A stretch of 64,000 nucleotides of DNA from Chromatiales bacterium (GTDB lineage Bacteria; Pseudomonadota; Gammaproteobacteria; JAJPIJ01). A program made the position numbers and the translations under genes. Position 1 is the stretch's first letter. The number at the start of each line of letters is the position of its first letter. Positions 841-55,152 of this stretch are shown here, in pieces. Location: contig JBQTIC010000054.1 in the NCBI GenBank assembly GCA_052388435.1, positions 2,739 to 66,738 on the forward strand, given 5' to 3'. A model generated the notes under the pieces. It saw only the letters and a list, made by a program, of their open reading frames with translations. It did not search any database and had not been told where the DNA came from.

Positions 841-3267
841 TCACCCCGTGCTGGCCGGCACGGACCACGCGGCGAGGAGATATAGGACGGCGGCCGCGAC
901 CACCGCCCCGATGTAACCGGCGTGCATCATGGTCAGTGTCGCCAGCATCGCACCCACGACTGATGCGCAGCCGTTGATCGCGAAGGCCCAGGGGATCAGC
1001 CGGCTGTCGCGCTCGCCGACGGCGCGCAGGGCCAACGGAAACGGCTGTCCCATCGCCATGGCGAGCGGTGCGAGCAGGCTGAGCGTAATCAGGATCCGTC
1101 CCCCGTCACCCATACCGCCGCTCCAATCAAACAGCGCCGGTAATATGGCCATGTGGAAAAGGAGCAGGGCGATGATCACGCCAATTGCGCGGCGCACGGC
1201 GCGCCGTGTGAATGCGCCGCCCCGCATGCCAAGCAGGCTGCCCAGGCCTGAGAACAGCAGCATGCCCGTGAGCACGACGGCGATGGCGTAGAGCGGATGA
1301 TGCAGATAAAGCATGAACTTCTGGATGCATGCCAGCTCGACAAACATGAACCCCAGCCCGATGGCGCCGAAATAGAGCGGAATGCGCGGTTCCCGTCCTG
1401 GACGGTCCGCGGTGTGCAGGCGCCGTTGCCACCACCACACGGGCAGCGCCACCAGTAACACACTGACGAGCAGCGCCTGCGCCAGTGCCGCCACGAGCAC
1501 AAAGTAACCGAGGTCCAGTAACGCCATGCCGCGCTCGCGACCCAGGCTCAACACTTCGGGCAGCACGCGCCAGCGGAAGAAGTGGAAAAAATACGGTCGG
1601 TCGTCGGTGGCCGGCCGCACGTTAAACTTGTAATCGGCGATAAACGCCTCCGCACGCTCGCCGAGCAGCGCCGCAGCGCCGAGGTAATCGTAGGCTTCCG
1701 GCCACACGTTGTAGCGGTTGGCCTCCGTCGCGGTCATCCCGGGGTACCACGCCAGGTCGAACCACCGCGACTGCGCAAATGATTTTGCCGTCTCGATCTG
1801 GGCGGGCGTCAGCGGTGCGTTGCCGACGACAATGACGCTCAGGTTCCAGCTGCGCAACCACAGGAGATGACGTTCCGGCTGCCTGTGCAGACGCCTCAGC
1901 GCTTCGACCGCGGTGGCAAAGAGCTTGAGGTCGTCGCGCGGCGGCAGTTGCGCCCAGCGCGACATTGCCAGCAGGCCGCCCGGTGCGAGTCTTCCGAGAT
2001 ACTCCTGCACCGCCTCGCGCGTGTAGAGATGGCTCTCGCTCAACGCGTGCACGCCGGAGGCGGCGGTGCTCAGCGCATCGAGGGGACTCAGCTCGATGAG
2101 GTCAAAACGATGCGGCGTCGTGGAGACGAACTGGCGCGCCTCGGCCACATGAACGTGCACCCGCGGGTCCGCATAGAGATTGCCGGCGAACTTCGAGAAC
2201 CGGTGGCGAACCATCTCGACCACTTGCGGGTTGAGTTCCACCACGTCCACGCGGCGCGCGCCGTGCACCAATGCGTCGAGGACGTCTACGCCGCCGCCGC
2301 CACCGAGGATGAGCACTGACGGCGCAGGCGCGAGCGCGTAAGGGAGTGCCGAGGGCAGATCCTTGAGATACTTGACCGTGGCGGAATTGCCGTCGTAGCG
2401 CGTGATGACGGACATCCCCTCCCCGTCAGTGAACAGCGCGATCTGTGCCGGCGGCGTCGCGGTTGCATTCAGGCTCAAGCCGGGCGCATGCCTGAACGGC
2501 ACCTCGGAGTTTTCCACGGCGGTGACCACCCCAAGCGGGCTGCTTCGCTCGGCGGCGACCCCGGCGCTGAGGATCTGCAACGTGCGGCTGAGCGACTTGT
2601 ATTCGCTCATGCGTACCGGAACCTGCGCCGCGAGCAACGCCAGCGCTGCGATGACCAGCACGATCAGCACCGGAGCGGCCTCGAAGCGCCCGGCAAAACC
2701 GCGCCACCCGAGCAGCACCGCCACCGCAATCACCACAGCGAGTGTGGCGAGGCACGCCACCGGCGGCAGCCACCAGAGCAGCCCGACGGTGGCGGCTGCT
2801 CCACACCCGGCACCGGCGAGATCGCAGCCGTAGACGACCGGCTGCTGCCGGCGGAAGCACGCCAGCATCAAGCATATACAGCTCGACGCAAAGAAGAAGG
2901 GCACGGCCAAGATGAGGTATGTCGCGAGCAGGTGCAGCCACTCCCGCCCATCCCACAGGATGGCGAGCGGGTTGAACGGGACCAACTGCGAGAGCAGGAA
3001 CGCGCCGCAGGCGCTGACGGCGAAGCCGAGACCGCAGGCGACGTAGAGCCGGCCAGCGGTCTGCGCCGACGGCGGCGGGCGGATGGCGAGCACCGTGCCG
3101 CTTACCGCATAGCCAAGCAGGGCGACACTGATGATGAGATAAGCGAAGTGATGCCACTGCACGATGGAGAACAGCCGCACGAGCAGGATCTCGGTGCCCA
3201 GCGCGGCGCCCGAGATCGCGAACACGGAAAAGAGGAGGTAACGACTCGGTCGATCGCTGGCAGCCAT
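841..3267 (-). CDS. polytopic membrane protein fused to spermidine-synthase-like (PABS / class I methyltransferase fold) domain
   Basis: 808-aa ORF. More than 8 hydrophobic helices N-terminal, central ILGGGGGVDVLDALVHGARRVDVVELNPQVVEMV...DLIELSPLD aminopropyltransferase-like core, then a second hydrophobic block. Known widespread fused membrane/spermidine-synthase family. Confidence 0.7.
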   Translation of the reverse strand: MAASDRPSRYLLFSVFAISGAALGTEILLVRLFSIVQWHHFAYLIISVALLGYAVSGTVLAIRPPPSAQTAGRLYVACGLGFAVSACGAFLLSQLVPFNPLAILWDGREWLHLLATYLILAVPFFFASSCICLMLACFRRQQPVVYGCDLAGAGCGAAATVGLLWWLPPVACLATLAVVIAVAVLLGWRGFAGRFEAAPVLIVLVIAALALLAAQVPVRMSEYKSLSRTLQILSAGVAAERSSPLGVVTAVENSEVPFRHAPGLSLNATATPPAQIALFTDGEGMSVITRYDGNSATVKYLKDLPSALPYALAPAPSVLILGGGGGVDVLDALVHGARRVDVVELNPQVVEMVRHRFSKFAGNLYADPRVHVHVAEARQFVSTTPHRFDLIELSPLDALSTAASGVHALSESHLYTREAVQEYLGRLAPGGLLAMSRWAQLPPRDDLKLFATAVEALRRLHRQPERHLLWLRSWNLSVIVVGNAPLTPAQIETAKSFAQSRWFDLAWYPGMTATEANRYNVWPEAYDYLGAAALLGERAEAFIADYKFNVRPATDDRPYFFHFFRWRVLPEVLSLGRERGMALLDLGYFVLVAALAQALLVSVLLVALPVWWWQRRLHTADRPGREPRIPLYFGAIGLGFMFVELACIQKFMLYLHHPLYAIAVVLTGMLLFSGLGSLLGMRGGAFTRRAVRRAIGVIIALLLFHMAILPALFDWSGGMGDGGRILITLSLLAPLAMAMGQPFPLALRAVGERDSRLIPWAFAINGCASVVGAMLATLTMMHAGYIGAVVAAAVLYLLAAWSVPASTG

Positions 3268-15535: not shown

Positions 15536-15611
15536 GCCCTGGTAGCTCAGGGGATAGAGCAACCGCCTCCTAAGCGGTAGGTCGGCGGTTCGAGTCCGCC
15601 CCAGGGCGCCA
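15536..15611 (+). tRNA. tRNA-Arg (anticodon CCU)
   Basis: Cloverleaf: acceptor GCCCTGG/CCAGGGC, D-arm GCTC-AGGGGATA-GAGC, anticodon stem ACCGC/GCGGT with loop CU-CCU-AA, T-arm GGCGG-TTCGAGT-CCGCC, discriminator G, encoded CCA. Confidence 0.9.
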
Positions 15612-15929: not shown

Positions 15930-17825
15930 ATGCTGACCGACCACGACATCTATCTGTTCAAGGAAGGCAGTCACGGCCGCCTCTATGAGAAACTGGGCTG
16001 TCACCCGACTGAGAGCAACGGTATCGCAGGCGCCCGCTTTGCGGTGTGGGCGCCAAATGCCCGCGCCGTGTCCGTGATCGGCGACTGGAACGACTGGGAT
16101 GATGCGAAGCATCCTCTGAGTACGCGTGGCGACGGGTCCGGCATCTGGGAAGGATTTGTCGCCGGTGTATCGCGCGGCCAGGCCTACAAATACCGGGTGT
16201 TTTCCGCTTACCGCGACTATCAGGTCGACAAGGCTGATCCGTTCGCATGCTGCGCGGAGACGCCGCCTTCCACCGCATCGCGTGCATGGCGTCTGGACTA
16301 TCAGTGGCAGGACGATGAGTGGATGCGGAGTCGCGGTGCACGCAATGCGCTCGGTGCGCCAATGTCCATCTACGAGGTCCACCTGGGTTCCTGGAAGCGC
16401 GTGCCAGAGGACGGCAACCGCTCTCTCTCCTATCGCGAGCTGGCGGGACCGCTGGCGCAGTACGTGCGGGACCTGGGCTTTACGCACGTTGAGTTCCTGC
16501 CCGTCGCCGAGCATCCCTTCTACGGCTCCTGGGGTTATCAGTGCACCGGCTATTTTGCACCCACCTCACGCTATGGCGCCCCACAGGACTTCATGTATCT
16601 CATCGATGTCCTGCATCAGCACGATATCGGGGTGATTCTCGACTGGGTGCCGTCGCACTTCCCTGATGATCAGTTTGGCTTGAGCTACTTCGACGGCACC
16701 TACCTCTACGAGCACGCCGATCCGAAGAAGGGTTATCACCCGCACTGGCACAGTTACATCTTCAACTACGGACGGCATGAGGTGCGCGGCTTTCTTCTGT
16801 CCAGCGCTCTGTACTGGCTGGAGAAGTATCACGTCGACGGCCTGCGCGTGGACGCCGTTGCTTCTATGCTCTTTCTTGATTACGGACGAGCCGCAGGGGA
16901 ATGGATCCCGAATGTGCATGGCGGCAGAGAGAATCTGGAAGCCGTCCATTTCCTGCGGCTGTTGAACCAGGCCGTCTACCGGGAGTATCCGGACGCGCAG
17001 GTGATCGCCGAGGAGTCCACTGCCTGGCCCATGGTTTCCCGGCCGGTCTATCTCGGCGGCCTTGGTTTCGGCATGAAATGGAACATGGGGTGGATGAACG
17101 ACAGTCTCCGCTACATGGCGCTGGATCCGATCTATCGCAGGCATCACCATGAAACCCTCACCTTCAGCATCTGGTATGCGTTTTCCGAGAACTTCGTGCT
17201 GCCGCTCTCGCACGACGAGGTGGTGCACGGGAAGGGTTCGCTCATCGGGAAGATGCCAGGCGATCGCTGGCAGAAGTTTGCTCACTTACGGCTGCTGTTC
17301 GGCTACATGTGGAGTCACCCCGGCCGGAAGCTGCTTTTCATGGGCGGGGAATTCGGCCAGTGGCAGGAATGGAACCACGAAGCCAGCCTGGACTGGCACT
17401 TGAGCGGTCAAGGCGAACACGGGGGACTGCAGCGGTGGGTAAGCGATCTTAACCGCCTGTATCGCGAAGAACCGGCACTGCACGACGCCGATGTCGGTCC
17501 TGCCGGCTTTGAATGGATCGACTGCCACGATGCCGAGAACAGCGTCATCAGCTTTATGCGCAAGTCCCGCAATGACAGTCACATCATGCTCGTCATCTGC
17601 AATTTCACGCCCGTGCCGCGCAGCAATTACGTGCTGGGCGTACCTCGCGGCGGCCATTGGCAGGAGGTGTTGAACAGTGACGCAGAGACCTACTGCGGGA
17701 GCGGAACGGGCAACATGGGTGGCGTCGAGGCCTCGCCCGTTCCTTCCCATGGCCACCATCACTCGGTGGCCGTCACGCTGCCCCCGTTGGCAACCGTGTA
17801 CTTCAGGAACGTGCAACAGTCATGA
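15930..17825 (+). CDS. glgB: 1,4-alpha-glucan branching enzyme (short GH13_9 form)
   Basis: 631 aa. CBM48 N-domain ([22 protein letters not shown]), GH13 catalytic core ([53 protein letters not shown]). Confidence 0.9.
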
Positions 17826-19088
17826 ACGGCGCTCGCTTGGATCCTGAACTGCGAGCAGCCGCGGCCAGGGATGCGGCGACCCGCTTCGACGCTGGCGTGC
17901 CACCTTTCGAGTCGATGCCGTGGGTCGATCATTTTCTTTCATGGCAGCATGACTTCGGCAGACGAGTTGACACCATGAAGACATCCGGCACCCGGCGCTC
18001 GAGCAGAGCAACACGGGCGTCTTCTTCGGCGACAAGCTCTATCTCAAGGGCACCGACTTGCGCGCGGCATCAACACGGAGCTGGAAATCGGCCGCTTTCT
18101 CACTGAGATCTCACCCTACGCCAACATTGCCCCCGTGCTCGGCGCCGTGGAATACGTGGGCCCGACGGCACGACGATGGCGCTCGCGCCGTTGCAACGGT
18201 ATGTCGAAAACCAGGGCAGCGCCAGGAATCATCGCTGGAGTTTCTCGACCAGATCCTGACTGAGCAGGTCATTAACACGGAGGTCTCGCAACTCGGCGAG
18301 GTCAAGCAATACGACTACTACATGACTCTGATGAAAACACTGGGCCGGCGCGTGGCGGAGTTGCACCGCGCCTTCACGCGGCGAACCGGCGATCCGGCCT
18401 TCGATCCCGAGCCGGTGACCCCCGAGGATATCCGCCAGTGGCCGCAAACAGCAATGGACAAAGCGGCACAGACGGTGGGAACGCTGTCGCAACGCCGCCA
18501 AGAATTTCCGGAAGCGACCGCGCTGCTCATCGACAAACTGTTTCCCGGATTGACCGGATCCGCCGTGCCGTTGAACCCGCGTCCGCCGGCGACTCGGAGA
18601 TGGTTAAAACGCGCTACCACGGCGATCTTCACCTCGGACAGGCGCTGATCGCCGGCGGTGATTTCATCGTGACCGACTTCGAGGGCGAGCCTGCACGGCC
18701 GCTTGCCGAACGCCGGCGCAAGCACTGTCCGCTGCGCGATGTGGCCGGCATGCTGCGTTCGTTCAGCTACGCGGCGGCCACGACGGAGGAACGCCTGGCA
18801 GGCGAACATACGGCCAAACGGGAACGCATCGCTGCGGTTCTCGCGCGCTGGGAAACTCGCACCGGCGAAGCGTTTCTGCAGGGTTACCTCGAGGCCGCCG
18901 CCGATCCCGCCGATCCGGCGGCCGCGCGCGCACTTATCGATCTGTTCATGCTGGAAAAGGCGCTCTACGAGCTGCGCTACGAGCTCGCCCACCGCCCCGA
19001 TTGGGTGAAGGTCCCCCTCCGCGGCCTGCTGGCAGTGCTGAATGTAACGAGACCAGCCTCCGACACCACCGTTGCAACTCAGCCATGA
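17822..19088 (+). pseudogene. maltokinase (Mak/Pep2, GlgE pathway), disrupted by at least 4 frameshifts
   Basis: ATG overlaps glgB stop (ATGA). Maltokinase-like segments (HPALEQSNTGVFFGDKLYLKGTDLRA / GINTELEIGRFLTEISPYANIAPVLGAVEYVGP / DGTTMALAPLQRYVENQG / LEFLDQILTEQ... / ...YHGDLHLGQALIAGGDFIVTDFEGEPARPLAERRRKHCPLRDVAGMLRSFSYAA...) are spread over three frames. Frame switches are needed near 18045, 18165, 18215 and 18600. Confidence 0.7.
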
Positions 19089-19179: not shown

Positions 19180-20508
19180 TCAGCCGGTGCTGGCCGCGTG
19201 CGTGGCGTCGGCCTTTTCTCCCTGCTGACTCTCTCGCTCGGTGGTGACCGACAGGCGCTGGATCAGCGTGCGCACGAACACCTTGAGAAAGTGGACCTGG
19301 CAGCTCATGGACAGCTGGTTGATGACGGTGGAGTTGAGCTTGAGCAGCGAGGTCGGTTCGCAGGCGACGATGGTCGCCGTGCGCCGGGTGCGCGTGAGAT
19401 AGCCCATCTCCCCGAAGCAGTCGCCGCGAGCGAGCATGCGCAGATCCCTGCCTCCCTTGCGCACGGTGACAGCACCACCGGCGATGACATAGAACGAGTC
19501 GTCGATCTCGCCCTCGACGATGATTTCCCGGCCAGGCTCAAACTGCAGCCAGGTACCGGCCCGCACCAGCTGCCACAGCTCACTGTCGGGGAAGGTCTGG
19601 AAGAACTCCAGCTTCCGTATCGTTGTGAACAGCTCCTTGACGGCGAGATCCTCCCTGGGTTGCTCGAGGAGATGCTCGAAGGCACGGCTCAGGTCCGCGG
19701 CCAAGTCGAGCGCGGTCAGATACCGCTGGGCCTGGTTCTTGGCCAGCGCCGTGCGCATAATCCGGTCCAGCTTTTTTGGCAGGTCACGCCGGAGCGCGTC
19801 GATGGGTGGCGGCTCGTCGTTCAGGATGCGCTGGATGAGCCGCGAGAAGCTCTCCGCGGCGAACGGGTGCCTGCCGGTCAGCAGTTCGAACATGATAATG
19901 CCAAGGGAAAAGATGTCGGTCTGAGCGGTCAGCGCATCCTCGTTGATCTGCTCCGGGGAGAGATAAAGCGGCGAGCCGACCAGGCCGAGCGGCATGGTGC
20001 CCGTCGCGTCCAGCTTGGTGATATAGGCGATGCTGAAGTCACCGATCTTGACGTCGAGATCCGGGGTGAGCAGGATGTTGCTCGGCTTGATGTCGCGGTG
20101 GATGATACCCTGGCGGTGAGCGTAGTCGAGCGCCTTGGCGCACTTGAAGACGATCTCCACCACCTTCTCTATCGGCAGCAGCGCGTCCGGCTTGCAGCAG
20201 GGTTTGAGCGTGGTCCCGCCTTCGACATATTCCATGACGATGTAGCACTGCTCCTCGACCCCGGCGTCCAGTATGGCGACGATATTGGGGTGGGTGAGCA
20301 GGCCCGCGGTGTGCGCCTCGTTGAAAAACATCTTGCGGTACTGGGCGCCCGAGTGTTCGTCATTGAGCTGTTCGGCATGGGCGACCTTGATGGCGACCTG
20401 GCGGTCGAGATAGGGGTCGTGGCCCAGATACACAGTGCCCATGCTACCCCGGCTTATCTCCCGTAACACCTCGTACTTGCCTAGCTTCTTCGGCGCCGGA
20501 TTGGCCAT
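19180..20508 (-). CDS. Ser/Thr protein kinase with C-terminal cyclic-nucleotide-binding (cNMP) domain
   Basis: Hanks kinase motifs: GSMGTVYLG, VAIK, HRDIKPSNILL, DFSIA, SPLYLSPE. C-terminal CAP-family cNMP-binding fold: FFQTFPDSELWQL...EGEIDDSFYVIAGGAVTV...GDCFGEMGYLTRTRRTATIVA. Confidence 0.85.
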   Translation of the reverse strand: MANPAPKKLGKYEVLREISRGSMGTVYLGHDPYLDRQVAIKVAHAEQLNDEHSGAQYRKMFFNEAHTAGLLTHPNIVAILDAGVEEQCYIVMEYVEGGTTLKPCCKPDALLPIEKVVEIVFKCAKALDYAHRQGIIHRDIKPSNILLTPDLDVKIGDFSIAYITKLDATGTMPLGLVGSPLYLSPEQINEDALTAQTDIFSLGIIMFELLTGRHPFAAESFSRLIQRILNDEPPPIDALRRDLPKKLDRIMRTALAKNQAQRYLTALDLAADLSRAFEHLLEQPREDLAVKELFTTIRKLEFFQTFPDSELWQLVRAGTWLQFEPGREIIVEGEIDDSFYVIAGGAVTVRKGGRDLRMLARGDCFGEMGYLTRTRRTATIVACEPTSLLKLNSTVINQLSMSCQVHFLKVFVRTLIQRLSVTTERESQQGEKADATHAASTG

Positions 20509-20774
20509 TGGTCCAGTCTTATCGAAACGTGGAGGGTATCGCGTTGAAGGCGAGTATTTAATGCTAGCCTGAAAGGGCTGGCTACGACAGGCAAATGATA
20601 TGTTTTACAGCATAGCTCACGGTTGTGCAGGTGCAGCATGTGTAGCCCATGATAGTTTGGTTCGGCGGTACGGCCTTCGGTTGTGATCCGTCTTTTTGGG
20701 TGCCAAACTACGTCTAGCTGTTAACCAGAACCTATACGCAACGCGTGAAGTGGACGCGCGGGAGGCAGGCCACT

Positions 20775-21212
20775 ATGGTGACGGTACAACAGGTGTTGCA
20801 CGACAAAGGTTACGGTGTCTGGTCCATCGGCCCGGAAGCAACCGTGTACGAAGCCGTGGCGCTCATGGCGGAGAAAGGGATTGGGGCTCTGCCGGTAGTG
20901 GACTGGAGCAATCGTCTCGTCGGCATCATTTCAGAGCGGGATTACACCCGGAAGATCGTCCTCAACAACCGCTTGTCGCGGGAAACGAAGGTGCGCGAGA
21001 TCATGACTGAAAAGGTCATCAACGTCGCGCCCGACGACATCATCGACGAGTGCATGGTGCTGATGTCGGAGAACAGAATCCGCCACCTGCCCGTGGTCGA
21101 TGGTGACCGGGTCGTCGGCATGCTCTCCACCAAGGATGTGTTCAAGATCATGATCGCGGAAAAGCAGACTCTCATCGAACAACTGGAACACTACATTACC
21201 GGGACGGGCTGA
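20775..21212 (+). CDS. CBS-pair domain protein
   Basis: Two CBS motifs: VYEAVALMAEKGIGALPVVD... and ...IIDECMVLMSENRIRHLPVVDGDRVVGMLSTKDV. ATG 20775 with GGGAGG RBS chosen over GTG 20745. Confidence 0.75.
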   Translation: MVTVQQVLHDKGYGVWSIGPEATVYEAVALMAEKGIGALPVVDWSNRLVGIISERDYTRKIVLNNRLSRETKVREIMTEKVINVAPDDIIDECMVLMSENRIRHLPVVDGDRVVGMLSTKDVFKIMIAEKQTLIEQLEHYITGTG

Positions 21213-21254
21213 AGGAGTCCGTCCCTCCGTCCGGAGGTGCGAACGCTCCCCGGT

Positions 21255-22301
21255 ATGCGCTCCTTCCTAGGCACTCTCGCCGTCGTCGTGCTCGTCGTTG
21301 CAGGAGTTTACTTGTACCTGCAGCAGGGGCCGCAGCGGGCCGAAACCAGTCCCGAGCAGGTCGCGGATGCCCACCCGGCGGTGCAGGACCAGTCCGCTGC
21401 CGCTGAGGAGAAACTGGAGCAGGAGGCTCGCGACTACATCCGCGACATCACCACGCTGCAGCAGCAGCCGCTCTCGGCGCAGAACGCGGACAACTTCGTG
21501 CAGCGTGATCAGACTATCCGGCTGCTTCCCGAAACCAAAGTGGAGGAAGTCACGCCCAGGCAGCTTCTCGCCGACCCGAACCTCGAGCCGGACACGCCGC
21601 TGACCGTGATTAAGGAAGTGGAGCAGATCGAGATCGTGACCCCAGACACTCTGCGCGAGAGGAACCCCAGCGACCCAGATCAGCCCATCAAGGTGCTGGA
21701 GGGGGACCTGATCAAGGAGACCACGGTCGGCGAGGTGCTCGACCAGCATGGCGCGGCCGGTGATGCGCCGATTACGCTCGTCAAGGAGGTGGAGGAGGTG
21801 CGGGCGATGACGGCCAGGGAGATCCAGCAGGACCCGTCGCTGGCCGCTGACGAGAAGATCAAGATCGTGCGCGGCCGCCAGCGGCTCGATGAGGCCACCG
21901 TGGCTGAGCTGATGCCCAGTCAGGAGGGCAGCGACGCGGATGCCATCTATTACATTCGCACCGTGAAAGCCACCGACAAGCAGGGTATCTGGGGCATCAT
22001 CCAGTATGGCCTCGTCGACAACTTTGCCACCGGCATCGCCATTCGTCGCGGCGAGGACATCGACACCTACCGCGTCGACATCCCCCGGGACGCCGATGAG
22101 ATGGTCAACGGGCAAACCAGCTCATTCCTTGGCAAGATGATCCATGCCAAGTCGAGCGACACCTACGTCTACAACTTTGAGAAGGGGCGCATGGGTCACA
22201 ATCCGAACATGATCCGCCCCGGCCAGGAACTCCTCATCATCCGCTTCTCAGCCGAAGAGCTTGTCGCGATCTATAAGCACTTCGTCAACAGCCGCGCCTA
22301 G
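21255..22301 (+). CDS. hypothetical membrane-anchored acidic repeat protein (possible LysM-like C-terminus)
   Basis: N-terminal TM (FLGTLAVVVLVVAGVYLYL). Four ~20-aa repeats (P.T.LTVIKEVEQIEIV / PIKVLEGDLIKETTV / PITLVKEVEEVRAMT / KIKIVRGRQRLDEAT). C-terminus ...NPNMIRPGQELLII resembles the distal half of a LysM motif. Start ATG 21255 or GTG 21237. Confidence 0.5.
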   Translation: MRSFLGTLAVVVLVVAGVYLYLQQGPQRAETSPEQVADAHPAVQDQSAAAEEKLEQEARDYIRDITTLQQQPLSAQNADNFVQRDQTIRLLPETKVEEVTPRQLLADPNLEPDTPLTVIKEVEQIEIVTPDTLRERNPSDPDQPIKVLEGDLIKETTVGEVLDQHGAAGDAPITLVKEVEEVRAMTAREIQQDPSLAADEKIKIVRGRQRLDEATVAELMPSQEGSDADAIYYIRTVKATDKQGIWGIIQYGLVDNFATGIAIRRGEDIDTYRVDIPRDADEMVNGQTSSFLGKMIHAKSSDTYVYNFEKGRMGHNPNMIRPGQELLIIRFSAEELVAIYKHFVNSRA

Positions 22302-22353
22302 GAATCTGGCGCACTTAAGCCGCCACCAGAACCACTCCGGCGGGACCAACCTC

Positions 22354-24006
22354 ATGGACATCACCACCAGCCAGGCGTGGCAGCGGCTCGGCGAACACCA
22401 TGATCGCGTGGTCGGTCTGCACATGCGTGAACTGTTCGGATCGGATCCAGAGCGGTACGGGCGCTTCGCTCTGGAGTGCGACGATCTGTTCCTCGACTAC
22501 TCCAAGAACCGCATCGTCCCCGAGACCATGGAACGGCTGCTCGCGCTTGCGCGTGCGGCAGAGGTCGAGGCGGCGCGCGAAGCGATGTTTGCGGGCGACA
22601 CGATCAACCACACCGAGCACCGCGCCGCCCTGCATACGGCGCTACGCAACTTTGGCGACAAGGCGGTACATGTCGACGGCGAGGATGTGATGCCAAGGGT
22701 ACGCGGCGTGCTGGCCCGCATGCGCACGCTAGTTGAGACTGTCACCAGCGGTCAGTGGCGCGGCCATAATGGCGCACGCATCACCGACGTGGTGAACATC
22801 GGGATCGGCGGGTCGCACCTTGGGCCGTTCATGGCCAGCGAGGCGTTGCGTCCCCATCATCAGGCCGGCCTGAGGGTGCACTACGTCTCCAATGCCGACC
22901 CCAGTGACATTGCTCTCACGCTTGCGGGACTGGACCCGGCCTCCACCCTCTTCATCGTTGTCTCCAAGACGTTCACGACGCTGGAGACATCGGCGAACGC
23001 CGCCGTGGCGAAGGCGTGGTTGATGCAACGCTTCGGGGAAGAGCGCGCTATCGCGGATCATGTGGTCGCTGTGTCGAGCGACCTGGAGGCGGCGCGCGCA
23101 TTCGGGGTCGGCACCGCCAACGTGCTGGAGATGTGGGACTGGGTTGGGGGCCGTTACTCGCTGTGGTCCGCCGTCGGCCTTTCCACCGCCTTAGCCGTCG
23201 GAATGGATGCATTCCTCGATCTGCTCAGGGGGGGCTGGCAGATGGACAATCACTTCCGTTCCGCGCCGCTTGAGACCAACCTGCCCATCATCCTCGGTCT
23301 GCTGGGCGTGTGGTATCACAACTTCTTCGGCGCGGAGAGCCACTGTGTCGTGCCGTACGAGGAGTTGCTGAAGCACCTGCCCGCGCATCTGCAGCAGCTC
23401 GACATGGAGAGCAATGGCAAGCGGGCGCAACGCGATGGCCATCTACTGCCGGTCACCACGGCCCCCGTGATCTGGGGCGGCACCGGCACGAACACCCAGC
23501 ACGCCTTCTTTCAGTTGTTGCACCAGGGGGGACGCGTCATTCCCGTCGATTTCCTGCTCGGACTGGCGAGTCCGTGCCCGCTCGGCGAGCAGCACGACCT
23601 GCTGGGGGCAAACTGTTTCGCGCAGTCGGAGGCGCTCATGCGCGGACGCACGCTCGAAGAGACCGCTGCCGAAATGCTTAAGGCGGGTATGGCATCAGAC
23701 CGCGTCCGCTTGCTCGCCCCCCATCGCGTCTTCCCCGGGAACAACCCCAGCAACACGCTGCTCTACTCCAAGCTCACGCCGCGAGTGCTCGGCCAGCTCA
23801 TTGCCCTCTACGAACACAAGGTCTTCGTTCAGGGCGTCATCTGGGGTGTCAATTCCTTCGACCAGTGGGGTGTGGAGCTTGGCAAGCAACTGGCGACGAC
23901 CATACTCGGCGAGTTTCGTGGCGACAATGCACCGGCACACGACGCGTCGACGAGCGGCCTGATCGCGCGTTTTCGGGGCCGCCCCCGCCAGGGAACCACT
24001 GATTAA
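22354..24006 (+). CDS. pgi: glucose-6-phosphate isomerase
   Basis: 550 aa. Motifs NIGIGGSHLGP, VSKTFTTLET, VGGRYSLWSAVG, LDMESNGK, GTNTQHAFFQLLHQGG are PGI signatures. Start ATG 22354 (MDITTSQAW). Confidence 0.9.
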   Translation: MDITTSQAWQRLGEHHDRVVGLHMRELFGSDPERYGRFALECDDLFLDYSKNRIVPETMERLLALARAAEVEAAREAMFAGDTINHTEHRAALHTALRNFGDKAVHVDGEDVMPRVRGVLARMRTLVETVTSGQWRGHNGARITDVVNIGIGGSHLGPFMASEALRPHHQAGLRVHYVSNADPSDIALTLAGLDPASTLFIVVSKTFTTLETSANAAVAKAWLMQRFGEERAIADHVVAVSSDLEAARAFGVGTANVLEMWDWVGGRYSLWSAVGLSTALAVGMDAFLDLLRGGWQMDNHFRSAPLETNLPIILGLLGVWYHNFFGAESHCVVPYEELLKHLPAHLQQLDMESNGKRAQRDGHLLPVTTAPVIWGGTGTNTQHAFFQLLHQGGRVIPVDFLLGLASPCPLGEQHDLLGANCFAQSEALMRGRTLEETAAEMLKAGMASDRVRLLAPHRVFPGNNPSNTLLYSKLTPRVLGQLIALYEHKVFVQGVIWGVNSFDQWGVELGKQLATTILGEFRGDNAPAHDASTSGLIARFRGRPRQGTTD

Positions 24007-24100
24007 ACCGCAGCCGACGCGGAGCGGCAGTTCGTCTGTGCAGGATGATCAGCATCGCGCCAGGCCATGATGTCGCGGCTACGGCGGATCCGCAAAGACA

Positions 24101-25420
24101 CTATGCGTTGTTCACAACCTTTGCCGTCGTCGTCGACAAGCGCTCGATCAGGATCCGCAGGAACACCTTGCAGAACCGTAACTGGCAGTCCTTCGACACC
24201 TGCTCGATGAGCGTGGAATTGACCTTCATGAGCGTGACCGGCGCGCTCGCCACGATGGTGGCTGTGCGGCGCAGGCGACTGATGTATCCCATCTCGCCGA
24301 AACAGTCACCGGGCTTGAGCAGGCCGACGATGACGCCGCCCTTCTTCACCGTGACCGAGCCGTTGATGAGTATGTAGAAGGAATCGTCTATCTCACCTTC
24401 GACGATGATCTCATCGCCCTGGTCGTACTGCTCCCAGACGCTGGCGCGGATGATCTCCCAAACCTCGGCGTCTGGAAAGCCGCGGAAGAAATCCAGCTGC
24501 TTGACACTCAGGAACTTCTCTTTGGCCGAAAGGTCCTCCTGCGGGCGTTCGAGCTGGCTGAAGGATGTGCTGAGGTCGGAGGCGAGCTCGATGCCCATCT
24601 TGTAACGGTACTGCGGGTCCTTGGCCAGGCAGCGGTTGACAATCCGCGCGATGCTTTCCGGCAGATCCACCCGTACCTCGTGTATCGGGATCGGCTCTTC
24701 GTTCACCACGCGGTAGACCAGATTGGAGAACGATTCGCCTCCGAAAGGATGGCGGCCCGTAAGCAGCTCGTACATCACCACGCCGAGCGAAAACAGGTCG
24801 GTCTGGCTGGTGATGCTCTCCTCCTGGATCTGCTCCGGAGACATGTAGCGCGGTGAACCCACAAAACCCATTGGCAGTGTCTTGGAGGCGTCGCGGCGCG
24901 TCACATAGGCGATGCTGAAATCTCCAATCTTGAGGTCCTTGTCGTGCGTCAGCAACATGTTGGAGGGCTTGATGTCGCGATGGATCACGCCCTGCCGGTG
25001 GGCGTAGTCGAGGGCCTTGGCGCACTTGAAGACGATCTCCACCACCTTGTGCACGGGCAGCAGGTTGTCGGCGCGGACGTAGGACTTAAGCGTGTCGCCG
25101 CCCTCGACGAGCTCCATGACGATGTAACAGGTCTCGCCCTCCACCCCGGCGTCGAAGATGTCGAGGATGTTCGGGTGGCGCAGCATGCCGGCCGTGTGCG
25201 CCTCATTGAAGAACATCCGGCGGTAGGACTCACCGGATTCCTGGTCCCGCAGCGCTTCGGCAAGGGCGACCTTGATGGCCACGGGGCGCGCAACGAAGGG
25301 ATCGTAGCCCCGGTACACCGCGCCCATGCTGCCGCGGGCTATGGCCTTGATGACGTCGTACTTGCCGAGCTTGCTTGGCGTGGCGTCCGGCGCCAGGGGT
25401 GCGTAGAGGGCGGTGTTCAT
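24101..25420 (-). CDS. Ser/Thr protein kinase with C-terminal cNMP-binding domain (paralog of 19180-20508)
   Basis: ~60% identical to the first kinase along its length: GSMGAVYRG, VAIK, HRDIKPSNMLL, DFSIA, SPRYMSPE, then FFRGFPDAEVWEI...EGEIDDSFYILINGSVTV...GDCFGEMGYISRLRRTATIVA. Start set at ATG 25420; the ORF-track extension to 25543 runs into the MITE-like repeat. Confidence 0.85.
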   Translation of the reverse strand: MNTALYAPLAPDATPSKLGKYDVIKAIARGSMGAVYRGYDPFVARPVAIKVALAEALRDQESGESYRRMFFNEAHTAGMLRHPNILDIFDAGVEGETCYIVMELVEGGDTLKSYVRADNLLPVHKVVEIVFKCAKALDYAHRQGVIHRDIKPSNMLLTHDKDLKIGDFSIAYVTRRDASKTLPMGFVGSPRYMSPEQIQEESITSQTDLFSLGVVMYELLTGRHPFGGESFSNLVYRVVNEEPIPIHEVRVDLPESIARIVNRCLAKDPQYRYKMGIELASDLSTSFSQLERPQEDLSAKEKFLSVKQLDFFRGFPDAEVWEIIRASVWEQYDQGDEIIVEGEIDDSFYILINGSVTVKKGGVIVGLLKPGDCFGEMGYISRLRRTATIVASAPVTLMKVNSTLIEQVSKDCQLRFCKVFLRILIERLSTTTAKVVNNA

Positions 25421-25458: not shown

Positions 25459-25616
25459 TTAGGGAAGCTCTGAATAAGCCCATCCTGGACTTTTCAGAGC
25501 ACGCAAAGCAAAAAGCGTGGTTTTTGCTTTGCTTCATCTTCAACGGCTTGCAGCCTTCGAAGATGGCGGCACATCCCTGTGCCGCAGGAACCTCTGACTT
25601 AATCAGAGGTTCCTTA
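25459..25616. repeat. 158-bp MITE-like repeat, copy A
   Basis: 99% identical (2 mismatches) to 47642-47799. Imperfect terminal inverted repeats (TTAGGGAAGCTCTGAATAAGC vs ...GACTTAATCAGAGGTTCCTTA). Internal perfect palindrome GGAACCTCTGA-cttaa-TCAGAGGTTCC and an AT-rich hairpin AAGCAAAAA-gcgtgg-TTTTTGCTT. GC content well below the flanks. Confidence 0.65.
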
Positions 25617-43469: not shown

Positions 43470-44270
43470 CTAGGCTGCCGTAATGTCGGCTGCCCTGCAG
43501 ATGGCCATAAATTCACCAGCGTTCAGCGAGGCGCCACCGATGAGACCGCCGTCGACATCCGGCTCGGCGAAGAGGTCGCGGGCGTTCGCCGCCTTCACGC
43601 TGCCGCCGTAGAGGATGCGCGCCCGCGCCGAGACCGCTGCATCGCGGCGTGCGAGCAGGTCACGCACGAAGGCATGCACCGCCTGCGCCTGCTGCGGTGT
43701 CGCGTTACGCCCGGTGCCGATGGCCCATACCGGCTCATAGGCAATGACGGCCGTCGCGAAGGGGCTTGCTCCCGATCCCTCGAGCACCGTCTCGATCTGG
43801 CGCTGGACCACTATTTCGGTCTCGCCGGCGTCGCGCTCCGCGAGCGTCTCGCCCACGCACAGGATCGGCGTCAGTTCCCTCTGCAGCAGTTTCGCGAACT
43901 TCACGGCCACCAGTTGGTCGGTCTCGCCATAGTACTGACGCCGCTCGGAGTGGCCGATGATCACATAGCGGCAACCCGATTCCTTCAGCATCGCTGCCGC
44001 CACCTCGCCCGTGTACGCGCCCGCGTCGTGCTGAGAGCAGTTCTGCGCACCCAGCGCCACCGGCGTCCCTGCCAACTTTGCGGCAACATCGCGCAGGTGC
44101 ACGAACGCAGGACACACCGCCACGTCAACGTGCTCAAGCGAACCGGCCTCGCCGAGTATCCTGTCCATCAGCGCTGCGATGGCGGCGAGAGATCCGTTCA
44201 TCTTCCAGTTTCCCGCGACCAGCGGCCGCCGCACGCGCAAACCCTCTTGCACCGCAACGAAAGGGGGCAA
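43470..44270 (-). CDS. tpiA: triose-phosphate isomerase
   Basis: RPLVAGNWKMNGS...IIGHSERR...ILCVGETL...AYEPVWAIGTG...ILYGGSVK are the TIM catalytic motifs. The true start may be slightly internal to the 266-aa ORF. Confidence 0.9.
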   Translation of the reverse strand: MPPFVAVQEGLRVRRPLVAGNWKMNGSLAAIAALMDRILGEAGSLEHVDVAVCPAFVHLRDVAAKLAGTPVALGAQNCSQHDAGAYTGEVAAAMLKESGCRYVIIGHSERRQYYGETDQLVAVKFAKLLQRELTPILCVGETLAERDAGETEIVVQRQIETVLEGSGASPFATAVIAYEPVWAIGTGRNATPQQAQAVHAFVRDLLARRDAAVSARARILYGGSVKAANARDLFAEPDVDGGLIGGASLNAGEFMAICRAADITAA

Positions 44271-44838: not shown

Positions 44839-45864
44839 ATGAGAAGCAACGAGAAAACCGTCAACCTCGCCCTGCAAGGCGGCGGCGCGCATGGCGCGTT
44901 CACGTGGGGGGTCCTCGACCGCCTGCTCGAAGACACCCGCGTGCGGATCGAAGGCATCAGCGCCACCAGCTCCGGCGCAATGAACGCGGTCATGATCGCC
45001 AACGGACTCGCCACGGGCGGGCGGGTCGGTGCGCGCGAGAAGCTCGCCGCCTTCTGGGAGATGATTGCCCGCAGGTCGCCTTTTGATCCTACCGGGAGCG
45101 GCATGTTGGCAATGTTCGGTGCGCCGCAGGCGGATCCGCCGCCCTGGATGCAGGCCTACATTGGGCTGTCGCGGACGCTGTCGCCTTACGTGGTTAACCC
45201 GCTCGACATCAACCCCCTGCGCGACATTCTGAGCCAGATCGTGGAGTTCGACCGGCTGCGCGACGGTTGCCCCATTAAACTCTTCGTCTCCGCCACACGC
45301 GTCAACAGCGGCAAGATCCGCATCTTCCGCAACAACGAGCTCAAGGTGGAGGTTCTGCTCGCCTCCGCCTGTGTGCCCTCGCTGCACCACGCCGTGGAGA
45401 TCGACGGCGAGGCGTACTGGGATGGTGGTTTCTCCGGCAACCCCGCCCTGTTTCCGCTCATCTTCGAGTGCCGTGGCGAAGACATCGTCATCGTGATGCT
45501 GCATCCGCTGGAGCGCAGCAAGGTGCCGACCAGCGCCAAGGCCATCTGGGAGCACATGACGGACCTTGCCTTTAACTCCGCCTTCCTGCGCGAAGTGCAG
45601 GCCATCGCGCACATGAAGACGCACGCCGACAGGCTGTGGGGGTTCGGTCCGATCGAACGCCGGTTCCGCCGCCTCAAGCTGCATCTCATCGAGGGCGAGG
45701 CGCTGCTCGGACAGCTCAGCCACAGCAGCCGCTTCAACGCCCGTCTCTCGTTTCTAGAGCATCTTCGCGACCAGGGCCGCGAGCATGCCAGCCAGTGGTT
45801 GGAGGGCCAGTTCTCGCAAGTCGGTTCGCGCTCGACCCTCAACATCGCCGAGCACTTTGCATGA
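44839..45864 (+). CDS. patatin-like phospholipase family protein
   Basis: Oxyanion hole LALQGGGAHGAF, nucleophile elbow GISATSSGA (G-x-S-x-G), catalytic Asp region DGGFSGNP. 341 aa. Stop overlaps phaC start. Confidence 0.8.
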   Translation: MRSNEKTVNLALQGGGAHGAFTWGVLDRLLEDTRVRIEGISATSSGAMNAVMIANGLATGGRVGAREKLAAFWEMIARRSPFDPTGSGMLAMFGAPQADPPPWMQAYIGLSRTLSPYVVNPLDINPLRDILSQIVEFDRLRDGCPIKLFVSATRVNSGKIRIFRNNELKVEVLLASACVPSLHHAVEIDGEAYWDGGFSGNPALFPLIFECRGEDIVIVMLHPLERSKVPTSAKAIWEHMTDLAFNSAFLREVQAIAHMKTHADRLWGFGPIERRFRRLKLHLIEGEALLGQLSHSSRFNARLSFLEHLRDQGREHASQWLEGQFSQVGSRSTLNIAEHFA

Positions 45865-47645
45865 CCATGGACGCCGCTGCTAGCACCGAGCGGAGTGCGC
45901 CGCCGCCAGCGCGCATGTGGCAGCGGCTCATGGGATACCAGTGCGCGCGTGACTGGATCGAGTGGCAGCGGCAGGTTTGGGCCGAGCACCCGCTCGCGAA
46001 GCTCATTCCGCTCGACACCGCGGAGGTGTCGCGGGCTTGGATCGATCTTGCCGAGCTCCTGGCCGCGCAACCGGCGCTCGCAGAGAAACACCTGAGCACC
46101 CTGCTCTATGAGCAGTCCAGGCTGGCACTGTGGACCTGGCGGCGGCTGCAGGGTGACGCCGCCGAGGAGCCGATCCCGGCGTCGGTGAAGGACCACCGCT
46201 TTCAGGACCCGGACTGGTCGCAATTGCTTCCTTTCAGCACGCTGCGCCAGTGGTATCTGCTGTGGTCGAAATGGATCAGCCACGCGACCGAGGAGGCCGG
46301 GAGCGGGAACGTCGATACGCAACGTATCGCCTTCTATTTGCGTCAGTGGCTCGATGCCCTGTGCCCCGCGAACTTCCCCGTCACCAACCCCGTGGTCATG
46401 CGCGAGACGCTGGCGAGCGGCGGCGAAAACCTTAAGCGGGGTCTGAAGAATCTGGCCGAGGATCTGGAGCGTGGCGCAATCAGCGTGGTCCCAGGCGAAC
46501 GTTTCAGACCAGGCGAGAACCTGGCGCTCACACCTGGCGACGTTGTCTATCGCAACGAGCTGATGGAACTAATGCAGTACCGGCCGGCCACCAAGAAGAC
46601 CTACGCCGTGCCGCTGCTCATCATTCCGCCGTGGATCAACCGCTACTACGTGCTGGACATGCGTCCTGGCATGAGCATGGTGGAACATCTGGTCGCGAAG
46701 GGATTCGCCGTATTCCTCATCAGCTGGCGCAATCCCGACAAGTCACAGGCCAGCCTCGGCTTCGAAGACTACTTGCGGCTTGGACCCCTGGAGGCGCTCA
46801 AGGTCATCAAGGGCATCACGCGCTCGCGCAAGGTGAATCTCGCCGGCTATTGCATCGGCGGCACCTTGCTAGGCATCGCGCTCGCGTACCTCGCGGCCAG
46901 GCGCGACTTCACCGCCGGCAGCGCCACGTTCCTCACCTCACTGCTCGACTTCGCAGAGGTGGGCGAGACCGCGCTCTTCCTCTCCGAGCAGCAGCTCGCC
47001 GAGATAGAGCGGCGCATGAATGCCAAGGGCTACCTGAGCCCGGACGAAGTCAGCTCGATCTTCCGCCTGATGCGTTCCAACGATCTCATCTGGAACTTCG
47101 TGGTCAACAATTATCTCCTGGGCAAGGAACCGCCGTCATTCGACCTGATGCACTGGAGCGTGGACGGCACGCGGCTGCCGCGCGCGATGCACGAGTACTA
47201 TCTTTACAACATGTATCTGCGGAACAATCTGAGCAAGCCGGATGCGCTCGAAATGCTCGGCAAGAAGATCAACCTCGGCCGGGTGCGCTGTCCCGCCTAC
47301 ATCGTCGCCGGCTCGGAGGATCACATCGTGCCGTGGCGCGCGGCGTTCCGCACCACCACACTGCTCAGCGGGCCCGCGCGTTTCGTGCTGGGCAATGCCG
47401 GGCACATCACCAGCATCGTCTCTCCGCCCGGTCCCGGCAAGGCCGCTTACCTAACGGGGAAGGTCGATACCGGCGACGCTGATGGCTGGCAGCAGGCGGC
47501 GACGCGGTACACAGGGAGCTGGTGGTCGGACTGGGTGAAGTGGCTGGCCAGGCATTCCGGCGAGAACACCGCTCTGACCCCGCGCGGCAGCAGGAGGTAT
47601 CCGCCAATCGAGCCTGCGCCCGGCCGCTACGTGCTGGAGACTTAG
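45861..47645 (+). CDS. phaC: class I poly(R)-hydroxyalkanoate synthase
   Basis: 594 aa from ATG 45861 (ATGA overlap with the patatin gene). Lipase-box GYCIGGT with catalytic Cys, alpha/beta-hydrolase core, conserved PhaC N-domain (WQRQVWAEHP...). ORF-track start 45636 is inside the patatin gene. Confidence 0.9.
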   Translation: MTMDAAASTERSAPPPARMWQRLMGYQCARDWIEWQRQVWAEHPLAKLIPLDTAEVSRAWIDLAELLAAQPALAEKHLSTLLYEQSRLALWTWRRLQGDAAEEPIPASVKDHRFQDPDWSQLLPFSTLRQWYLLWSKWISHATEEAGSGNVDTQRIAFYLRQWLDALCPANFPVTNPVVMRETLASGGENLKRGLKNLAEDLERGAISVVPGERFRPGENLALTPGDVVYRNELMELMQYRPATKKTYAVPLLIIPPWINRYYVLDMRPGMSMVEHLVAKGFAVFLISWRNPDKSQASLGFEDYLRLGPLEALKVIKGITRSRKVNLAGYCIGGTLLGIALAYLAARRDFTAGSATFLTSLLDFAEVGETALFLSEQQLAEIERRMNAKGYLSPDEVSSIFRLMRSNDLIWNFVVNNYLLGKEPPSFDLMHWSVDGTRLPRAMHEYYLYNMYLRNNLSKPDALEMLGKKINLGRVRCPAYIVAGSEDHIVPWRAAFRTTTLLSGPARFVLGNAGHITSIVSPPGPGKAAYLTGKVDTGDADGWQQAATRYTGSWWSDWVKWLARHSGENTALTPRGSRRYPPIEPAPGRYVLET

Positions 47646-47799
47646 GGAAGCTCTGAATAAGCCCATCCTGGACTTCTCAGAGCACGCAAAGCAAAAAGCG
47701 TGGTTTTTGCGTTGCTTCATCTTCAACGGCTTGCAGCCTTCGAAGATGGCGGCACATCCCTGTGCCGCAGGAACCTCTGACTTAATCAGAGGTTCCTTA
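47642..47799. repeat. 158-bp MITE-like repeat, copy B (between convergent phaC and glnE)
   Basis: See copy A (25459-25616). Begins on the phaC TAG stop and ends 2 nt after the glnE stop, so it fills the whole convergent intergenic gap. Contains the 11-bp-stem palindrome GGAACCTCTGA/TCAGAGGTTCC, a plausible bidirectional terminator. Confidence 0.65.
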
Positions 47800-54366: not shown

Positions 54367-55152
54367 TCAAGGTAGGCGCCCTGCCATCACCATTCGGTTC
54401 TTGAGAACGTTCGGCGAGATCCATGTCACGAGGTCGTCGAATTCCAGCGTGTCGTCCCGGCTGAAGCTCTTGGAGACAAACACCGCATCTGGATCCTCAT
54501 TTTCCTGTTCATGGCTGGAGAGAGTGCCGCCGATTGCCAGCGCAGCGTCATTGTGATTGCTGCCGCGCGAGAAAATCAACGCGGGCACTTGGTTAACCAC
54601 TGTCGCGCCGCCCGCAGCATCCAGAACCGTTATGTCACCGACAGAGCAAAGCTCGAATGCCACCGTGGCTGTTGCTGTACCGCAAGGAGCGGTGTTTGTT
54701 CCGGCCGCAAAGAGCGGCGTAACTCTGTAACGAAAGAAGCCGCGATAACCAGCCGCACCTCCCCATTCGTCTCGCTGCCCAACATTCAGGTCAACCCACG
54801 GCAGGTTTCCCGAAGCGGCCACGCAAACTGGCGGGGTTCCAGTTCGATCCTCCGTCCCATCGTCACCGACGGAATCCGGACAGGGAAGTCGCCCATTTGC
54901 AACGGCGAACCCGACCAGCGCTTCCTTGATGTTCTCCAGTTGACCCTGTGTCCTTTGCCGCTCCTGCGATTCGGTGCGAGTGCTCAACGGGCCAAGCAGG
55001 CCCGCGAGCAGCAAAGCAATGACCAGAAGAACGATGGCGAGCTCGACGAGAGTGAAGCCCCGCGAGGCCGAACGCGCACGCAAGCCTCGTTCGCAACTCC
55101 AGGCAACCCCACATGGTGCGCTCACCGGCGAACGGTTACGGCTGGCGCGCAA
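54367..55152 (-). CDS. type IV pilin-like / pseudopilin protein with prepilin cleavage-methylation motif
   Basis: ...LRARSASRG|FTLVELAIVLLVIALLLAGLLGPL is the canonical class III signal (G-1, F+1, E+5, hydrophobic helix). The ORF starts with TTG at 55152 (GAGGT RBS at 8 nt), giving an unusually long 32-aa leader. The alternative TTG at 55083 gives a typical 9-aa leader MRARSASRG. Mature protein has 4 Cys. Confidence 0.75.
   Translation of the reverse strand: MRASRNRSPVSAPCGVAWSCERGLRARSASRGFTLVELAIVLLVIALLLAGLLGPLSTRTESQERQRTQGQLENIKEALVGFAVANGRLPCPDSVGDDGTEDRTGTPPVCVAASGNLPWVDLNVGQRDEWGGAAGYRGFFRYRVTPLFAAGTNTAPCGTATATVAFELCSVGDITVLDAAGGATVVNQVPALIFSRGSNHNDAALAIGGTLSSHEQENEDPDAVFVSKSFSRDDTLEFDDLVTWISPNVLKNRMVMAGRLP

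Follow-up and report, generated by a model that had tools for sequence, protein, structure and literature searches.

The stretch of DNA considered here, referred to as the window, comprises 64,000 nucleotides of contig JBQTIC010000054.1 in the metagenome-assembled genome GCA_052388435.1, labelled as a Chromatiales bacterium. Its subject of interest is a compact locus in which two paralogous minus-strand genes, named kinA (19180-20508) and kinB (24101-25420), each encode a Hanks-type Ser/Thr kinase fused to a C-terminal cyclic nucleotide (cNMP)-binding (CNB) domain, and together bracket a plus-strand unit coding for a CBS-pair protein, an acidic membrane-anchored repeat protein (REP) and glucose-6-phosphate isomerase (pgi). 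Both kinase open reading frames (ORFs), and the order of the genes between them, are as the original prediction had described.

KinA (442 aa) is the A-type paralogue, in which a soluble kinase domain (residues ~10-263) is followed by a helical linker and then by the CNB domain (~300-425). KinB, the B-type paralogue, has the same architecture and contains 439 aa when counted from the ATG at 25420, a start that is backed by the family alignment, the longest ORF itself reaching a TTG at 25543. The kinB gene is convergent with pgi across a 94-nt spacer and, at the opposite end of the locus, kinA is separated from the CBS-REP-pgi unit by a divergent intergenic region (20509-20774). The first gene of the unit (20775-21212, plus strand), whose ATG is preceded by GGGAGG, encodes a stand-alone CBS-pair protein of 145 aa (PF00571 in two stretches, 7.5e-27). 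The second (21255-22301, plus strand) encodes REP, with a pI of 4.7, one N-terminal transmembrane (TM) segment and two 58-aa repeats. The third, pgi, starts at the ATG at 22354 and extends to 24006 on the same strand; its product of 550 aa is matched by PF00342 (3.3e-199) and by NF001211 (779.9 bits against a cutoff of 492).

Kinase and nucleotide-binding domains

Both halves of each fusion score above the respective Pfam cutoffs, as the original prediction had anticipated, and in both proteins the kinase is N-terminal and the CNB domain C-terminal. Pkinase (PF00069, cutoff 31.7) matches KinA at 1.1e-45 (156.6 bits) and KinB at 4.2e-50 (171 bits), and cNMP_binding (PF00027, cutoff 27.5) matches them at 1e-15 (57.9 bits) and 7.9e-16 (58.2 bits), respectively. 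Identity between the two proteins amounts to 62% over 424 aa, close to the ~60% that had been estimated. Neither contains a TM or other hydrophobic segment (the maximum KD19 value in KinA is 1.4), and both are therefore predicted to be soluble.

The residues that would be needed for catalysis are retained throughout the family. Across the 50 A-type, 53 B-type and 4 C-type copies surveyed, taken together with the family alignment, the VAIK lysine K41, the alpha-C glutamate E64, H137-R138-D139, N144, D157 and E186 are invariant, and the activation-loop Thr171 is nearly so (52 of the 53 B copies). The family has its own variants of two further motifs, in that DFG reads DFS (D157-F-S) and APE reads SPE. 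In the CNB domain the phosphate-binding cassette, F365-G366-E367-M-G-Y-L-T-R-T-R-R376-T377-A378-T379, has the canonical 13-residue span that is also found in PKA. Its Gly and Glu are invariant, its Arg is present in 102 of the 103 A and B copies and is followed by Thr or Ser in 100 of the 103; among the B copies R376 and A378 are each kept in 52/53, most other sites being invariant. A deviation is seen at the position after G-E-x, which is Gly where the usual residue is Ala. Moreover, the CNB domain aligns without gaps with CNB-D of Plasmodium PKG and CNB-B of PKA RI-alpha (FGEMGYLTRTRRTAT here, FGERALLYDEPRTAS in PKG CNB-D). The cassette, the loss of which the original prediction had raised as a possibility, is thus intact in both paralogues, the CNB domain of the B copies being less conserved overall than that of the A copies (mean column conservation 0.68 vs 0.81).

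Conservation of this kind bears on whether the CNB domains bind a cyclic nucleotide at all. CNB domains with other ligands are known (PMC2246266, PMC10959531), and it could be envisaged that those of KinA and KinB serve instead for dimerisation or for the recognition of some other ligand, as in CooA, CprK and trypanosome PKA; that no cyclase is seen in the window would accord with such a role. The described non-cNMP families, however, have a divergent cassette (PMC2246266), whereas here the canonical length and the Gly, Glu, Arg and Thr/Ser-Ala positions are kept in essentially all A and B copies, such that a non-cNMP function appears improbable. Both kinases are apparently active and each CNB domain is apparently competent, and it can be predicted with good confidence from these residue patterns that KinA and KinB constitute a pair of active, cNMP-binding kinases. 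As to which nucleotide would be bound, the R-T-A-T signature corresponds to the PKG consensus and also to the bacterial-channel consensus as tabulated by Kannan et al. (PMC2246266), and since it fits both alike, cyclic AMP (cAMP) and cyclic GMP (cGMP) are indistinguishable as ligands on the basis of the sequence.

The order of the two domains had been described as a reversal of that in eukaryotic PKA and PKG. The kinase-then-CNB order is indeed present; the implied relationship, however, does not hold, since the catalytic domain is nearest to PknB, StkP and PknA (PDB 1mru, PknB, 8.7e-48), which makes this an independent bacterial fusion rather than a rearranged PKG. The PKG entries in the PDB comparison score highly only because both domains match, in three stretches. 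With PKG and PKA R/C the proteins share a Ser/Thr kinase and a canonical CNB domain, with a G-E...R-T-A-T cassette of the PKG consensus (PMC2246266), but they differ in having the kinase at the N-terminus, a single C-terminal CNB domain in place of tandem ones, and a catalytic domain that is PknB-like and not AGC. With PknB/Stk1 they share the best catalytic match, the RD kinase motif and conserved activation-loop Thr residues, but they lack the TM segment and PASTA repeats, are cytoplasmic, carry the C-terminal CNB domain and have DFS instead of DFG. In keeping with this, the PASTA kinase model NF033483 (PknB/Stk1) reaches 285 and 283 bits against its cutoff of 450, aligning with the kinase part alone. 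The CNB region is also matched, at 32.5 bits, by the NCBIfam model NF058543 ('acetyltransferase Pat'). Mycobacterial Pat, in which cAMP relieves autoinhibition, is a mechanistic analogue; it resembles KinA and KinB as a bacterial post-translational modification enzyme fused to a CNB domain (CNB-GNAT), but has acetyltransferase output, an N-terminal CNB domain and no paired paralogue.

Conservation and history of the locus

When one genome per species was scanned (185,579 species), 524 gene copies of the kinase-CNB family were found, so that the fusion, which the original prediction had held to be rare in Proteobacteria, is not especially rare in environmental Gammaproteobacteria. The domain architecture is identical in all of the best 120 protein clusters. 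The best 80 of the 524 loci were compared by tblastn searches with the proteins of the window, and the counts that follow refer to the 63 of these 80 that have at least 5.5 kb of sequence upstream of the A-type kinase. In all of them (63/63) a B-type kinase lies within 6 kb on the same strand as the A-type kinase, and in 58/63 (92%) the pair encloses pgi. A CBS gene occurs in 23/63, always beside the A-type kinase, and REP in 10/63. Order and orientation are constant in the locus maps, with kinB followed by pgi, REP and CBS on the opposite strand and then by kinA, and the spacer between the A-type kinase and the divergent pgi or CBS gene ranges from 120 to 630 bp (71 loci). The neighbourhood is, in other words, conserved in relatives, as the original prediction would require, albeit around a smaller core than had been envisaged.

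The outer flanks, by contrast with the core, vary, with at least three contexts on each side. On the B side are found SCO1/PCuAC/psd/nuo, a PEP-mutase phosphonate cluster or unique genes, and on the A side a GSDH-like gene, DUF1302/DUF1329, the maltokinase remnant with glgB described below, or unique genes. Many loci combine nuo-psd-PCuAC-SCO1 on the B side with the GSDH-like dehydrogenase on the A side, and in the window itself profile searches place SCO1, PCuAC, psd and the nuo operon on the far side of kinB. In the loci L056-L080 a PEP-mutase/phosphonate cluster occupies the B side and DUF1302-DUF1329-BNR-RND genes the A side; all flanking genes of the window are gone within +/-10 kb, the order and orientation of the core being intact. 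The carriers are a group of mostly uncultured Gammaproteobacteria. The complete module is, however, found in the cultured Methylohalomonas lacus HMT 1 (L058), which makes the hypothesis of a cNMP-dependent kinase experimentally accessible. As a separate observation, in ~20-25 loci (for example at 11316-12443 in L036) the secreted GSDH-like gene (glucose/sorbosone dehydrogenase, PF07995) directly follows the A-type kinase, in the same orientation; this second neighbour with a relation to sugars is missing from the window.

The original prediction had connected the kinases with carbon storage, that is, with glycogen via glgB and the GlgE/maltokinase route or with polyhydroxyalkanoate (PHA). Pgi supplies glucose-6-phosphate (G6P) for glycogen synthesis, and in the window glgB and a dead maltokinase do lie beside kinA. 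The 1,4-alpha-glucan branching enzyme gene glgB (15930-17825, plus strand; NF003811, 983 bits against a cutoff of 741), which lies outside the module, is followed directly 3' of its stop codon by a frameshifted maltokinase (Mak/Pep2) remnant (17822-19088, plus strand). In a six-frame reading, at least three frame changes are needed for the 1.3 kb gap between glgB and kinA to be read as maltokinase, the neighbouring genes being intact. Its C-terminal 143 aa match the PDB maltokinases 5jy7, 4u94 and 4o7o (E = 7e-32 to 5e-30), Pfam finds nothing in the three ORFs of the region, and the homology becomes visible only through the cross-frame reading and the PDB search. The remnant probably represents a genuine pseudogene, derived from a gene of the GlgE pathway; an assembly error is less probable. 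Against a storage circuit stand the observations that glgB lies within 10 kb of the kinase pair in 0/80 related loci, that the maltokinase remnant likewise recurs in 0/80, that REP, which had been included in the proposed circuit, is present in so few loci, and that phaC (45636-47645, plus strand) lies ~20 kb away, beyond the nuo operon. The adjacency of glgB and maltokinase in the window is incidental, the absence of glgB near the pair elsewhere identifies the conserved core as the kinase pair with pgi and not a glycogen/PHA circuit, and control of carbon storage has accordingly little to recommend it. It may be added that phaC, which lies ~20 kb from the kinase module, as do tpiA (43470-44270, minus strand) and glnE (47797-50691, minus strand), probably accounts for the PHA idea in the first place without being adjacent to the kinases, and that a tRNA gene (15536-15608, plus strand; Rfam, 68 bits) is found ~320 bp 5' of glgB.

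A further reading to be considered is a role in anti-phage defence, either as a PD-T4-6-like kinase or as a Pycsar-type cNMP-activated effector. cNMP-binding domains do occur in defence effectors, and the PADLOC models for PD-T4-6 and mad6 match the kinase domain at 262-268 and 216-233 bits, respectively. These matches are, however, confined to the Hanks kinase domain in its generic features, the match to PknB (285 bits) is at least as good, and the NCBIfam MAD6 model, at 157 bits, falls far under its cutoff of 460. Moreover, the genes around the kinases are pgi, nuo, psd and SCO1, with no cyclase or other defence gene adjacent, and the kinase genes are 60-85% identical across many species, with a clade structure that fits vertical descent. 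A defence function is therefore extremely improbable, and the PD-T4-6/MAD6 assignment was rejected on account of the kinase-domain-only matches and the conserved housekeeping context.

In a neighbour-joining tree of 131 copies, the A-position copies form one clade of 65 sequences and the B-position copies fall into several clades joined by a very short backbone. The A and B copies of one genome are sisters in no case, from which it follows that the duplication predates the divergence of these lineages and that both copies have been kept since. The family extends beyond the paired loci. A query consisting of the linker and CNB domain, searched against 1.84 billion representative proteins, returned dozens of ~430-aa proteins of the same layout with 38-50% identity in the matched part, and over their full length the distant proteins of this layout are 38-55% identical to KinA and KinB. 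A metagenome scan for distant members employed the generic pattern HRDxKPxN, and yielded mostly unrelated kinases along with ~9 full-length family loci. As an observation in its own right, seven loci (L008, L010, L014, L024, L025, L028 and L030) have yet another paralogue of the kinase-CNB type, the third (42-45% identity), which is encoded ~9-10 kb downstream of the A copy and beside the gene for a ~1300-aa PilZ-DUF1631-GGDEF-EAL protein; in the genomes concerned, cNMP-kinase and c-di-GMP signalling may thus be connected.

A candidate module at the hexose phosphate node

The persistence of pgi between the two kinases raises the question of whether the association is functional. It may be that the kinases respond to cNMP as general regulators whose targets lie in other parts of the cell, and that pgi was simply trapped between them in the ancestor of the clade. 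Several observations weigh in this direction. The arrangement is confined to a single clade (kinase identity >= 58%), and many of the loci also share part of the SCO1-psd-nuo flank. In 5/63 loci the pair occurs without pgi, three having the kinases directly adjacent and two retaining CBS and REP. The main support comes from the distant homologues (36-50% identity; L084, L087, L088, L091 and L101), each of which is a single kinase with no pgi or CBS nearby and with unrelated housekeeping neighbours (thiL-pgpA, a radical-SAM/TRAM methylthiotransferase, moaC), such that the link to pgi is clade-specific and could be inherited synteny. For the proposal of a cNMP-gated module more generally, it is also unfavourable that the ORFs scanned in the window include no cyclase, phosphodiesterase, PP2C phosphatase or FHA protein, and that the AF2 model of KinA, made from a 15-sequence alignment, has a pLDDT of 60 and a pTM of 0.37, too poor for inter-domain contacts to be read from it. 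Set against inherited synteny are the loci L056-L080, in which the order and orientation of kinB, pgi, (REP), (CBS) and kinA are kept in the absence of the window's flanking genes, the existence of at least three flank contexts on each side, and the fact that either pgi or CBS always shares the divergent spacer of 120-630 bp with the A-type kinase. On this evidence inherited synteny alone is a somewhat unlikely explanation, and the balance tips, by a little, towards a functional coupling of the kinase pair to pgi.

There is about an even chance that the locus encodes a two-kinase, cNMP-gated module which acts at the node between G6P and fructose-6-phosphate (F6P). On the model of PKG, PKA-R and the mycobacterial cAMP-gated acetyltransferase, cAMP or cGMP would bind the C-terminal CNB domain and thereby switch the activity of the kinase, probably via the conserved linker and C-helix and autophosphorylation of Thr171. 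The obligate pairing of KinA and KinB, along with the unequal divergence of the A and B copies, suggests that they act together, which could be as a heterodimer or in a two-step cascade. Their target would be tied to the G6P/F6P node, the simplest candidates being Pgi and/or the CBS protein. The module would in this way make the partition of hexose phosphate dependent on the level of a second messenger and possibly, via the CBS protein, on adenylate status.

Individual elements of this proposal have precedents. The genes for the Hanks kinase Pkn4 and for phosphofructokinase are reportedly adjacent in Myxococcus. Pkn4 of Myxococcus xanthus phosphorylates phosphofructokinase (as cited in PMC1262709), and is thus a Hanks kinase that acts on a central sugar-phosphate enzyme; unlike KinA and KinB, it lacks a CNB domain, occurs singly and has phosphofructokinase as its target, Pgi being here only a candidate. 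Pgi is itself listed in the phosphoproteome of Streptococcus thermophilus (PMC6593474). Nonetheless, that Pgi is a direct substrate of the kinases is doubtful. Less likely again is the complete form of the proposal, in which KinA and KinB form a heteromeric, truly cNMP-dependent kinase of an origin independent of PKA/PKG, phosphorylating Pgi and/or the CBS partner and so gating the G6P/F6P branch point. In the CBS protein there is a likeness to AMPK gamma and other CBS-pair sensors, insofar as a CBS-pair nucleotide sensor is encoded beside a Ser/Thr kinase; the protein here differs in being a 145-aa stand-alone pair nearest to PDB 4fry and in occurring in only 23/63 loci.

The components of the locus are of known kinds (Hanks kinase, CNB domain, Pgi, CBS pair), and eukaryotes already provide the concept of a kinase that depends on cNMP. 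The novelty lies in a bacterial form of separate origin, present as an ancient obligate pair that brackets pgi. Bacterial cyclic nucleotide signalling is understood mainly through the CRP/CAP transcription factors, a few channels and a few fused enzymes and, to our knowledge, the phosphorylation of proteins under the control of cNMP is considered a property of eukaryotes. No NCBIfam equivalog covers KinA or KinB, and in databases the members of the family are named only 'protein kinase' or 'hypothetical'. A full-text search of the literature found no study of the kinase-CNB family, the only mention being a catalogue line of Kannan et al. 2007 (PMC2246266), and cyclic nucleotides receive no mention in the 2025 atlas of bacterial Ser/Thr kinases. 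The 'Other_bacterial' class of Kannan et al. does contain bacterial CNB domains attached to 'kinases', such that the architecture has been catalogued, but the entry comes without a family definition, paired arrangement, link to pgi or experiments. The family is, therefore, a concrete candidate for cNMP-gated post-translational control of bacterial central carbon metabolism. Were a heteromeric cNMP-dependent kinase acting on Pgi/CBS to be established, no cNMP-dependent Ser/Thr kinase of bacteria would have been characterised before it, and CRP-type catabolite control would have gained a counterpart at the post-translational level. Should the link prove to be only historical synteny, the comparison retains its use, in that it delimits a kinase family that has had no curated entry and shows glgB and maltokinase to be incidental neighbours.

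Accessory genes, spacers and other features of the window

The CBS protein is, as judged from its homology, an ordinary stand-alone Bateman pair. It is nearest over its whole length to PDB 4fry, a 'putative signal-transduction protein with CBS domains' (9.6e-41), and matches AMPK gamma chains weakly (~7e-6). Identification as CbpB was considered and rejected, the score being 39.9 bits against a cutoff of 125.

REP has no match in Pfam, NCBIfam or PADLOC. Its family comprises 91 clusters among 5.8 billion proteins, all unnamed, and it has a conserved C-terminal domain. A confident AF2 model (pLDDT 83, pTM 0.60) gave no fold match when searched with Foldseek against the PDB, the best E value being 0.18. 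Distant relatives are encoded after amiB-mutL in Methylophaga (L081) or near propionyl-CoA carboxylase genes and, since REP is present in 10/63 loci and its distant homologues are found in these unrelated contexts, it is best regarded as a facultative passenger.

In the spacer between kinA and CBS the motif GGTTGTGAT-N12-GTGCCAAACT occurs at ~20683-20714, ~60-90 nt 5' of the CBS start. It is common to eight CBS-type loci (the window, L027, L046, L047, L060, L061, L068 and L080) and may be a promoter or operator of the CBS gene. A k-mer search of the divergent spacers returned only lineage-restricted motifs, namely GAATATCACG in pgi-type and TTTGGCAC-N13-ACAAC in CBS-type loci, with no CRP-like palindrome and no sigma-54 -12 element; within the kinA/CBS spacer there is no strong sigma-70 consensus match. 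In the divergent kinB/SCO1 spacer a perfect 12-bp hairpin (GCAAAGCAAAAA...TTTTTGCTTTGC) lies at 25503-25532, over which Rfam gives a sub-threshold gyrA-RNA match (25.3 bits against 45) that is probably due to chance. Across 14.5-27 kb, the Rfam and promoter/terminator scans detected only the tRNA, this sub-threshold match and the one hairpin.

Further from the locus, two large ORFs of the window may be mentioned. The ORF at 841-3267 (minus strand, 808 aa) has as its sole Pfam match a spermine/spermidine-synthase domain in the middle of the protein (4.4e-10), and is unusually long for that family. The ORF at 55136-58255 (minus strand, 1039 aa), which has no Pfam match, stands beside a gene for a pilin-like N_methyl protein (54367-55152) and near T2SS F/E-type genes with an MshEN domain (60933-63844), and could belong to an MSHA-type pilus cluster as one of its large components.

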